Positions 52,457 through 53,786 of a stretch of DNA of 64,000 bases are shown here, piece after piece. Each line of letters starts with the position of its first letter. The first letter of the stretch is position 1. A model generated the notes under the pieces. That model was given only the letters and a program-made list of their open reading frames with translations. It did not search any database and was not told the origin of the DNA. Source of the stretch: Escherichia coli (GTDB lineage: Bacteria > Pseudomonadota > Gammaproteobacteria > Enterobacterales > Enterobacteriaceae); assembly GCF_003018115.1 (NCBI RefSeq), contig NZ_CP027457.1; one strand, written 5' to 3'. Position numbers and translations under genes: made by a program.

Positions 52457-52487
52457 TGTGCGAATTTAGCGCGTTATGCTGCGTAAA

Positions 52488-53786
52488 TTACGCCTGCTGG
52501 TTCATCAGCTCGTTGAAAGTGGTTTCTTTTTCAGTCACTTTCGCTTTCGCCAGTACAGCTTCAACAGCCTGTTCTTCCAGAGCAACATTGCGCATGTTGT
52601 CCATCAGTTCTTTGTTTTTGCTGTAGAACTCGATAACTTCTTTCGGATCTTCGTACGCAGAAGCCATCTCTTCGATCAGGCCTTTCACGCGCTCTTCGTC
52701 AGCTTTCAGCTGGTTGGTGCGGATAACTTCGCCCAGCAGCAGGCCAACAACTACGCGGCGTTTAGCCTGTTCTTCGAACAGTTCGCGCGGCAGTTCCAGA
52801 GCTTGTTTTTCGTTGCCACCGAAACGCTGTGCAGCCTGACGACGCAGAACGTCGATTTCGCTGTCAATCAGCGCAGCCGGTACGTCGATGTCGTTAGCTT
52901 TTACCAGACCTTCGATCGCCTGAGACTTAACGCGGTTACGGATGGCGCTCTTCAGCTCGCGCTCCATGTTTTTACGCACTTCAGCGCGCAGACCTTCTAC
53001 GGAACCATCTTCAACGCCGAAACGTTTGATGAATTCTGCAGTCAGTTCCGGCAGTTCACGCTCTTCAACTTTCTTCAGGTTGATAGCGAATTTCGCTGCT
53101 TTACCTTTCAGGTTTTCTGCGTGGTATTCTTCCGGGAAGGTCACGTCGATGGTGAACTCTTCGCCAGCTTTGTGGCCTTTGATACCGTCTTCAAAGCCCG
53201 GGATCATACGACCCTGGCCCATCGCCAGTACGAAATCAGACGCTTTACCGCCTTCGAACTCTTCGCCGTCTACAGAACCGGTGAAGTCGATGGTTACGCG
53301 GTCTTCTGCTTCAACAGCGCCGTCTTTTTCTTTCCAGGTCGCCTGCTGTTTACGCAGAGTATCCAGCATGCCGTCAACGTCAGCGTCGGTCACTTCAACG
53401 ATCGGTTTTTCAACTTCGATCGCTTCCAGACCCTGCAGTTCAACTTCCGGATAAACTTCAAACTCTACAGAGTAGGTGAAGTCTTCACCCAGCTTGTATT
53501 CGCCCGGAACATAAGTCGGTGCGCCAGCCGGATTGATTTTTTCTTTAATGATGGCGTCAATGAAGTTACGGCTCATCAGGTCACCCAGAACGTCCTGGCG
53601 TACAGACGCGCCATAACGCTGAGCAACGATATTCATTGGCACTTTGCCTTTGCGGAAGCCGTCAATACGTACTTTTTTCGCAACGTTGACCAGCTCGCTT
53701 TTAACAGCGGTCTCGATGCTGTCAGCAGCGATAGTAATCGTTACACGGCGGCCAAGGCCTTGAGTGGTTTCAACTGAAACTTGCAT
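52488..53786 (-). CDS. tig: Trigger factor Tig (432 aa)
   Basis: ORF 52488..53786 (-); recognised N-terminus [54 protein letters not shown]. Confidence 0.98.

Follow-up and report, generated by a model that had tools for sequence, protein, structure and literature searches.

Codon-aligned antisense reading frames opposite tig, htpG and lon of Escherichia coli are very probably a by-product of translational codon bias

The window analyzed here is a 64,000-nucleotide stretch of an Escherichia coli chromosome (assembly GCF_003018115.1, contig NZ_CP027457.1) that extends from copA to yajR. Its minus strand carries tig (52488..53786), the trigger factor gene, which has the strongest codon bias in the window. 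The plus strand opposite tig contains an open reading frame of 433 codons (52476..53777) that lies in frame -1 and is aligned codon for codon with the gene. The ATG of this frame is located 12 nt past the tig stop codon, and the frame terminates in a TGA (53775..53777) that is the complement of tig codon 4, a TCA serine codon. The hairpin of the tig intrinsic terminator (52426..52457, minus strand) lies 19 nt upstream of the mirror ATG when the plus strand is read. PGAP annotates tig alone at this locus. The tig region is 100% identical to NZ_CP104613.1, and matches to it with at least 80% query coverage are present in 5,424 of 5,426 complete E. coli genomes.

Frames of the same kind face two other minus-strand genes. 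Opposite htpG (Hsp90 chaperone; 11914..13788) there is a plus-strand ORF of 530 codons (11887..13479) that is stop-free over htpG codons 105-624, and opposite the middle of lon (endopeptidase La; 47677..50031) there is one of 410 codons (48517..49749), also on the plus strand, that is stop-free over codons 96-558 of the annotated gene. In all three pairs the start coordinates are equal modulo 3, which places them in exact codon register. As the sense and antisense frames are in phase, the antisense codons are precise reverse complements of sense codons. A first-pass annotation of the window had pointed out these three frames, and each is recovered in the ORF list with the length and position that had been claimed for it. 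Its description of them as spanning nearly the full length of the genes is correct for tig, where 99% of the gene is stop-free (429 of 432 codons), and fair for htpG (83%, 521 of 624), but it is overstated for lon, where the 463-codon open run, of which 410 codons follow its first start codon, amounts to 59%. A fourth example that was absent from that annotation occurs opposite adk (11089..11733, minus strand), whose aligned antisense frame is 100% stop-free and gives an ORF of 183 amino acids from its first ATG (11218..11769, plus strand). The plus strand of this part of the window also carries a known small RNA, sraA (50103..50198).

In this register the stop codons TAA, TAG and TGA are possible only opposite sense TTA and CTA (leucine) and TCA (serine). 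A count of these three codons, which had been suggested as a check, gives in that order 0, 0 and 1 for tig (the single TCA being Ser4), 0, 0 and 2 for htpG (TCA at codons 11 and 104) and 6, 2 and 3 for the GTG-extended lon ORF. The annotated lon gene has nine stop-making codons, all within codons 29-95 or 559-735. Their number is near expectation, but they are clustered at the two ends of the gene. Leucine is encoded by CTG in 30 of 31 cases in tig and in 57 of 66 in htpG. Other non-optimal codons are also scarce in tig (TTG 0, CTC 0, CTT 1, TCG 0 and AGT 0).

We consider the mirror ORFs opposite tig, htpG and lon to be, with little room for doubt, a passive by-product of translational codon bias and not genes. 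Highly expressed E. coli genes encode leucine nearly always by CTG and serine for the most part by TCT, TCC or AGC. With such a choice of codons TTA, CTA and TCA almost disappear, and the mirror frame consequently remains open for hundreds of codons. The genes tig, htpG and adk have a strong bias. That of lon is moderate, and its few stop-making codons lie near its ends by chance. Open mirror frames of this origin would need no transcription or translation of the plus strand, and, judged from the sequence, the frames are probably not expressed from it.

The probability of finding such frames depends on the codon usage that is assumed. Over the 56 annotated genes of the window, TTA and CTA together make up 13.6% of leucine codons and TCA makes up 10.1% of serine codons. 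At this average usage an open frame over the observed segment has a probability of 2.7e-3 in tig, 1e-5 in htpG and 5e-5 in lon. We therefore give no credence to pure coincidence without codon bias. The same improbable values, along with the great length of the frames (433, 530 and 410 codons), could also be counted in favor of at least one of them being a genuine antisense overlapping gene, like pop, laoB or ano, that is kept open by selection on the antisense protein. Window-average usage is, however, the wrong null for tig, htpG and lon. Fop served as our measure of codon bias. The optimal codons of E. coli were those generally known, and leucine and serine codons were dropped to avoid circularity. 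Among the 56 genes tig ranks first (Fop = 0.84), adk second (0.79) and htpG sixth (0.72), and lon has a value of 0.63. Over the same genes Fop correlates negatively with the ratio (TTA+CTA+TCA)/(Leu+Ser) (rho = -0.58, p = 3e-6) and positively with the open fraction or run of the mirror frame (rho = 0.38, p = 0.003), and this second correlation is further evidence against coincidence. So is the mean longest open run, which is 140 codons in the aligned antisense frame versus 57-79 codons in the four other alternative frames, making the aligned frame on average about twice as open as any of them.

Codon usage of the translation apparatus was measured in 31 E. coli K-12 genes (ribosomal-protein genes, tufA, fusA and rpoA; 5,253 codons), in which (TTA+CTA)/Leu is 0.042 and TCA/Ser is 0.039. 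The frequencies of Sharp and Li for highly expressed genes are reportedly 0.024 and 0.033, and our verdict uses the measured values, which are somewhat above these. At the 31-gene usage the probability of an open segment rises to 0.16 in tig, 0.026 in htpG and 0.045 in lon, figures that apply to segments picked post hoc in a genome with hundreds of well-expressed genes. The number of stop-making codons expected from ribosomal-gene usage agrees with the number observed. The first-pass annotation had called the frames statistically striking, which is apt under average codon usage but does not hold under that of the translation apparatus. Mirror frames that are at least 95% open occur opposite 19 of the 31 reference genes, and the open runs reach 395 codons in tufA, 274 in rplB, 234 in rpsC and 528 in fusA. 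That like frames lie opposite so many ribosomal-protein, elongation-factor and rpoA genes argues against a genuine antisense gene opposite tig, htpG or lon.

When the frequency of stop-making codons in the 56 genes of the window is regressed on Fop by a leave-one-out logistic model, tig is not an outlier. The nominal P of the run length is 0.0035 for htpG, 0.0047 for the unrelated gene ybaP and 0.0057 for lon, and the htpG and lon values could again be read as favoring a genuine antisense gene. After correction for 56 tests, however, no run-length outlier is left in this model. Six of the 56 genes fall below 0.05 versus about three expected, which shows that Fop alone is an under-dispersed predictor.

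Selection for an open mirror frame should act on stop-making codons in particular. Codon counts of tig were combined over 64 species that prefer CTG and set against those of clpP, clpX and lon from the same genomes, with other rare codons as controls. The stop-making share of non-CTG leucine codons is slightly larger in tig (odds ratio 1.24, p = 0.055), and TCA is commoner in tig relative to TCG and AGT combined (odds ratio 1.9, p = 8e-5). Selection on the mirror frame predicts odds ratios of the opposite sign, so there is no specific avoidance of stops, and this counts against a genuine antisense gene. The depletion in tig covers non-optimal codons generally, and stop-making codons are no rarer than other rare codons. 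The cause proposed for the frames was that highly expressed genes avoid UUA, CUA and UCA. The correlation with bias, the 19 of 31 reference genes, the control codons and the pattern across lineages described below all agree with this explanation, although what looks like avoidance is better described as an almost exclusive reliance on CTG and on TCT, TCC and AGC.

Conservation was examined in 80 tig loci with their flanks from Enterobacterales, Vibrionaceae and Pasteurella. In the 64 species with CTG as the dominant leucine codon of tig, the longest open run has a median length of 350 codons. CTA provides 15-19 of the approximately 30 tig leucines in 13 Vibrionaceae species, where the longest run is only 51-87 codons. 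Where TTA is dominant (Pasteurella, Arsenophonus and an uncultured Enterobacterales genome), it is 31-101 codons. The CTA-rich Vibrio and the three TTA-dominant species have 17-34 antisense stops in tig. Across species the number of antisense stops in tig follows the usage of the neighboring clpP, clpX and lon genes of the same species (rho = 0.78, p = 4e-17). The tig gene is thus a clean illustration of the effect, with a mirror frame that is open under CTG preference and shattered under CTA preference in Vibrio or TTA preference in Pasteurella. Of the 80 species, 23 have an open frame, which could be taken to favor a genuine antisense gene, but openness tracks the preferred leucine codon of each lineage. 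In CTG-using species, too, extra TCA codons interrupt the frame at scattered sites, and 75 different tig codon positions have a stop-making codon in at least one species.

The frames opposite lon and htpG are also interrupted in close relatives. The open segment of lon (codons 96-558) survives in a single species out of 73, and likewise in a single one of the 18 species with at least 95% Lon identity. The lon gene of Citrobacter, at 99% identity, has antisense stops at codons 401 and 438. For htpG the comparison covers five Enterobacterales sequences, with homologues below 90% identity lying outside the sample. Antisense stops occur at codons 108, 178 and 532 of Salmonella htpG (95% identity), and there are nine in an Erwinia-like sequence and seven in an Atlantibacter sequence. 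The htpG genes of Enterobacter and Kosakonia lack TTA and CTA and contain one TCA, which places their sole antisense stop at codon 11. Among the relatives compared, none of the tig, htpG and lon mirror ORFs is conserved beyond the expectation from codon usage.

The tig frame also varies within E. coli. Codon 376 of tig (52659..52661, minus strand) is TCT in the window and TCA in O157:H7 EDL933, a synonymous difference that puts a TGA into the mirror ORF. Counting the two alleles with allele-specific 35-mers over 5,426 complete E. coli genomes gives TCA in 297, O157:H7 strains among them, and TCT in 5,109, so that the mirror frame is unbroken at this site in about 94%. A successful lineage evidently lives without the full-length tig mirror frame. 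The breaks in tig of O157:H7, lon of Citrobacter and htpG of Salmonella all count against genuine antisense genes. We see a vanishingly small chance that the tig frame (in most E. coli strains) or the htpG frame is an overlapping gene of very recent origin that has arisen on the codon bias of its host gene and that, under some condition, is transcribed and weakly translated into a Phe-rich polypeptide of lineage-restricted function. If this were so for tig, then the O157:H7 lineage would be its natural knockout.

Substitution rates do not suggest selection on a mirror protein. In 15 comparisons of E. coli with other Enterobacteriaceae, the sense dN/dS of tig is approximately 0.07-0.1, and the same alignments read in the mirror frame give values of 1.7-2.6, none of them below 1 as purifying selection on the tig mirror protein would require. 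An antisense dN/dS near 2 is expected because third positions that are synonymous in the sense gene become first positions of antisense codons. An OLGenie-style test on sense-synonymous sites is unsuitable here, since nearly every sense-synonymous change is nonsynonymous in the antisense frame and too few sites are left. Codon bias is classically known to be inversely related to the synonymous rate, and over the 11 genes available dS declines as Fop rises (rho = -0.82, p = 0.002). The median dS of tig is low (0.52), but that of hupB is lower still (0.44) even though only 73% of the hupB mirror frame is open. The first-pass annotation had proposed that conserved synonymous-site constraint in the sense genes would argue for real antisense frames. 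No such extra constraint is seen in tig, whose dS fits the trend of dS with bias. Given these rates, the codon controls and the broken frames of relatives, a genuine antisense overlapping gene that is maintained by selection is extremely unlikely.

The hypothetical products have unusual properties as well. The tig mirror product would contain 17.8% Phe (z = +7.5 relative to the real proteins of the window), 0.2% Pro, 0.2% Met and 0.9% Lys. In composition distance it scores 9.6, whereas the real proteins of the window with at least 150 residues reach 8.0 at most. Its codon-usage log-ratio is -0.40 bits per codon, versus at least +0.25 in all 56 annotated genes. Composition and codon usage of the product exactly mirror those of the sense gene, which is another argument against a genuine antisense gene. 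A Pfam scan of the three mirror proteins finds no family, with only a sub-threshold match of the lon mirror to DUF2614 (E = 0.13). An exact-sequence look-up of the three in approximately 15 billion proteins finds none, and a homology search with the tig mirror protein finds only six sporadic, weakly supported gene calls, all antisense to tig orthologues. Single-sequence AF2 modeling of the tig mirror yields a mean pLDDT of 33.7, and every residue scores 50 or lower. This agrees with the absence of a fold but is weak evidence.

In a consensus scan, which was made for the tig mirror only, the 20 nt before the ATG at 52476 (…GTGCGAATTTAGCGCGTT) contain no Shine-Dalgarno-like purine run. The plus strand upstream of 52476 has no sigma-70-like site by consensus match, a kind of search that weak or unusual signals could escape. 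The lack of such sites in these scans argues against a genuine antisense gene at tig. It also bears on the possibility that the frames are not genes, yet the plus strand is pervasively transcribed and occasionally translated into non-functional or "proto-gene" polypeptides. For E. coli there are many reports of antisense transcription and low-level antisense translation (Ardern et al. 2020, PMC7457138; Zehentner et al. 2020), the small RNA sraA is transcribed from the plus strand nearby, and the sequence holds nothing that forbids such expression. In addition to the absence of promoter-like and Shine-Dalgarno sites from the consensus scans, the tig terminator hairpin lies directly upstream of the mirror ATG and is present on both strands, and the very heavy opposing transcription of tig would probably interfere with antisense transcripts. 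The supplements of Zehentner et al. 2020 contain no tig, htpG or lon antisense candidate among the entries searched by gene name and ORF length, all numeric hits there being 7-digit coordinates or numbers with no relation to the frames. Occasional translation of the frames from pervasive transcripts is accordingly very unlikely.

Codon bias as the source of these frames is an explanation with precedents. In E. coli K-12, long frame -1 ORFs are explained by the codon usage of roughly the 5% most highly expressed genes (Mir et al. 2012, PMC3454372). The same paper cites Merino et al. 1994 on frame -1 antisense ORFs that result from biased codon usage and Silke 1997 for the statement that long frame -1 ORFs arise statistically opposite very highly expressed genes, and both works are given here as that citing paper presents them. 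PMC3454372 allows for significance of some frame -1 ORFs that face weakly expressed genes, a class to which tig, htpG and adk do not belong. Moshensky and Alexeevski (bioRxiv 10.1101/724807) apply an identical TTA/CTA/TCA formula and come to the same conclusion for dnaK. Both studies (PMC3454372 and bioRxiv 10.1101/724807) nevertheless find a genome-wide excess of long antisense ORFs over simple codon-usage models, and the second finds lower Ks in genes bearing long antisense ORFs. This residual excess is the main reason that we leave a small probability for translation of the mirror frames.

These results call for caution in annotation, since length alone, even at 400-500 codons, is no evidence for a gene when an ORF on the opposite strand mirrors a highly expressed gene codon for codon. 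Should any of the frames turn out to be translated and to have a function, a model organism would be seen to possess an overlapping gene of unusual length, but nothing found here points in this direction.

The antisense overlapping genes of O157:H7 (pop opposite ompA, laoB, ano and others) resemble the mirror frames of the window in that an ORF overlaps an annotated gene on the opposite strand. These genes were reportedly found by RNA-seq and Ribo-seq, and promoters, regulated expression or phenotypes are reported for some of them (PMC7103648, PMC5810103, PMC5960689 and PMC9927249). Published ribosome profiling is reported to argue for antisense overlapping genes in E. coli, a point in favor of genuine genes in general. 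The O157:H7 genes differ from our frames in being reportedly much shorter (186-603 bp), and ano is reported to be in frame -3. The window's mirror frames are in frame -1, give negative results in evolutionary tests and are known here from sequence alone. The EDL933 candidate tables of Zehentner et al. 2020, which list embedded ORFs only, contain no ORF at tig among the entries at 5211xx-5222xx, prefixes 5223 and 5224 being outside the range checked, and this is a further point against a genuine gene there.

The mirror ORF of dnaK/hsp70 is a closer relative. It is also in frame -1, nearly spans the gene for a highly expressed heat-shock chaperone and occurs in many independent lineages. Its homologues are found only opposite the parent gene, just as the six relatives of the tig mirror are all located antisense to tig orthologues, and it shows no purifying selection (Pfam PF10712, "NAD-GH"; bioRxiv 10.1101/724807). 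It differs in its later history, because it became a database family, "NAD-specific glutamate dehydrogenase" (PF10712), with an enzymatic claim attached, and so demonstrates that mirror frames have misled annotation before. Unlike the dnaK mirror, those of tig, htpG and lon have no Pfam family and are essentially absent from databases.

The closest match is to the frame -1 shadow ORFs as a class. These have the same codon alignment, obey the same TTA/CTA/TCA stop rule and are longest opposite very highly expressed genes. The phenomenon is therefore already known, and the frames opposite tig, htpG and lon are ordinary examples of it with no sign of function. There is no difference of substance between the shadow ORFs described before and the frames opposite tig, htpG, lon and adk, which are further instances of the same kind.

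The only stop-making codon of E. coli tig, that is, the only sense codon (TTA, CTA or TCA) opposite which a stop arises in the codon-aligned antisense or mirror frame, is a nonoptimal serine TCA at codon 4 (window 53775..53777). Of the 80 species whose tig loci were compared, 42 have a stop-making codon at codon 4, and in all of the close relatives listed it is either the sole such codon or among very few, with extreme bias elsewhere in the gene. Its presence there may reflect constraints on codons at the 5' end or on mRNA structure.

In lon (47677..50031), all nine stop-making codons, which are rare leucine and serine codons, fall within codons 29-95 and 559-735, leaving none in the middle 463 codons. 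The total is as expected, and a run of this length has P ~0.006 under the bias model, a leave-one-out regression of stop-making codon frequency on Fop. This spacing is not conserved in relatives, and the uninterrupted middle of lon is therefore probably due to chance. Near the lon mirror ORF (48517..49749), and without overlapping it, a genuine transcript of the + strand is the sRNA sraA (50103..50198, +; Rfam, 106.7 bits), which sits between lon and clpX and runs in the opposite direction to both genes. Rfam also matches the naRNA4 (CssrE) repeat family, with four copies at 148..427 and 7488..7565, some of them on both strands.

The codon-aligned antisense frame of adk (11089..11733, -) contains no stops across its 215 codons, and its mirror ORF occupies 11218..11769 on the + strand. 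The codon bias of adk ranks second among the window genes. Almost as open are the mirror frames of yajG (95%) and decR (89%). The adk frame is absent from the list in the first-pass annotation. In the copA-side half of the window, gene coordinates taken from NZ_CP104613.1, which is otherwise near-identical, were moved by +1 and then +2 to accommodate two single-base offsets, at ~5,600 and ~28,900-31,000.

One database protein (P0125, 491 aa, from a 6,118-bp JGI contig) is named "biotin operon repressor." It has HTH domains at its N terminus, and its C-terminal 192 residues are a translation of tig antisense that is 76% identical to the mirror ORF in the window (52476..53777). This protein is probably a gene call that begins in a neighboring gene and continues along the open mirror frame, or else the product of a chimeric contig.

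The tig mirror frame is lost in Vibrionaceae (loci L065-L081, where the match spans 10001-11293 in most) because CTA is preferred for leucine. This codon accounts for 15-19 of the ~30 tig leucines in 13 Vibrio and Photobacterium species, and it is a striking lineage-specific preferred leucine codon in a highly expressed gene. The adjacent genes clpP, clpX and lon show more mixed leucine codon usage than Vibrionaceae tig itself.
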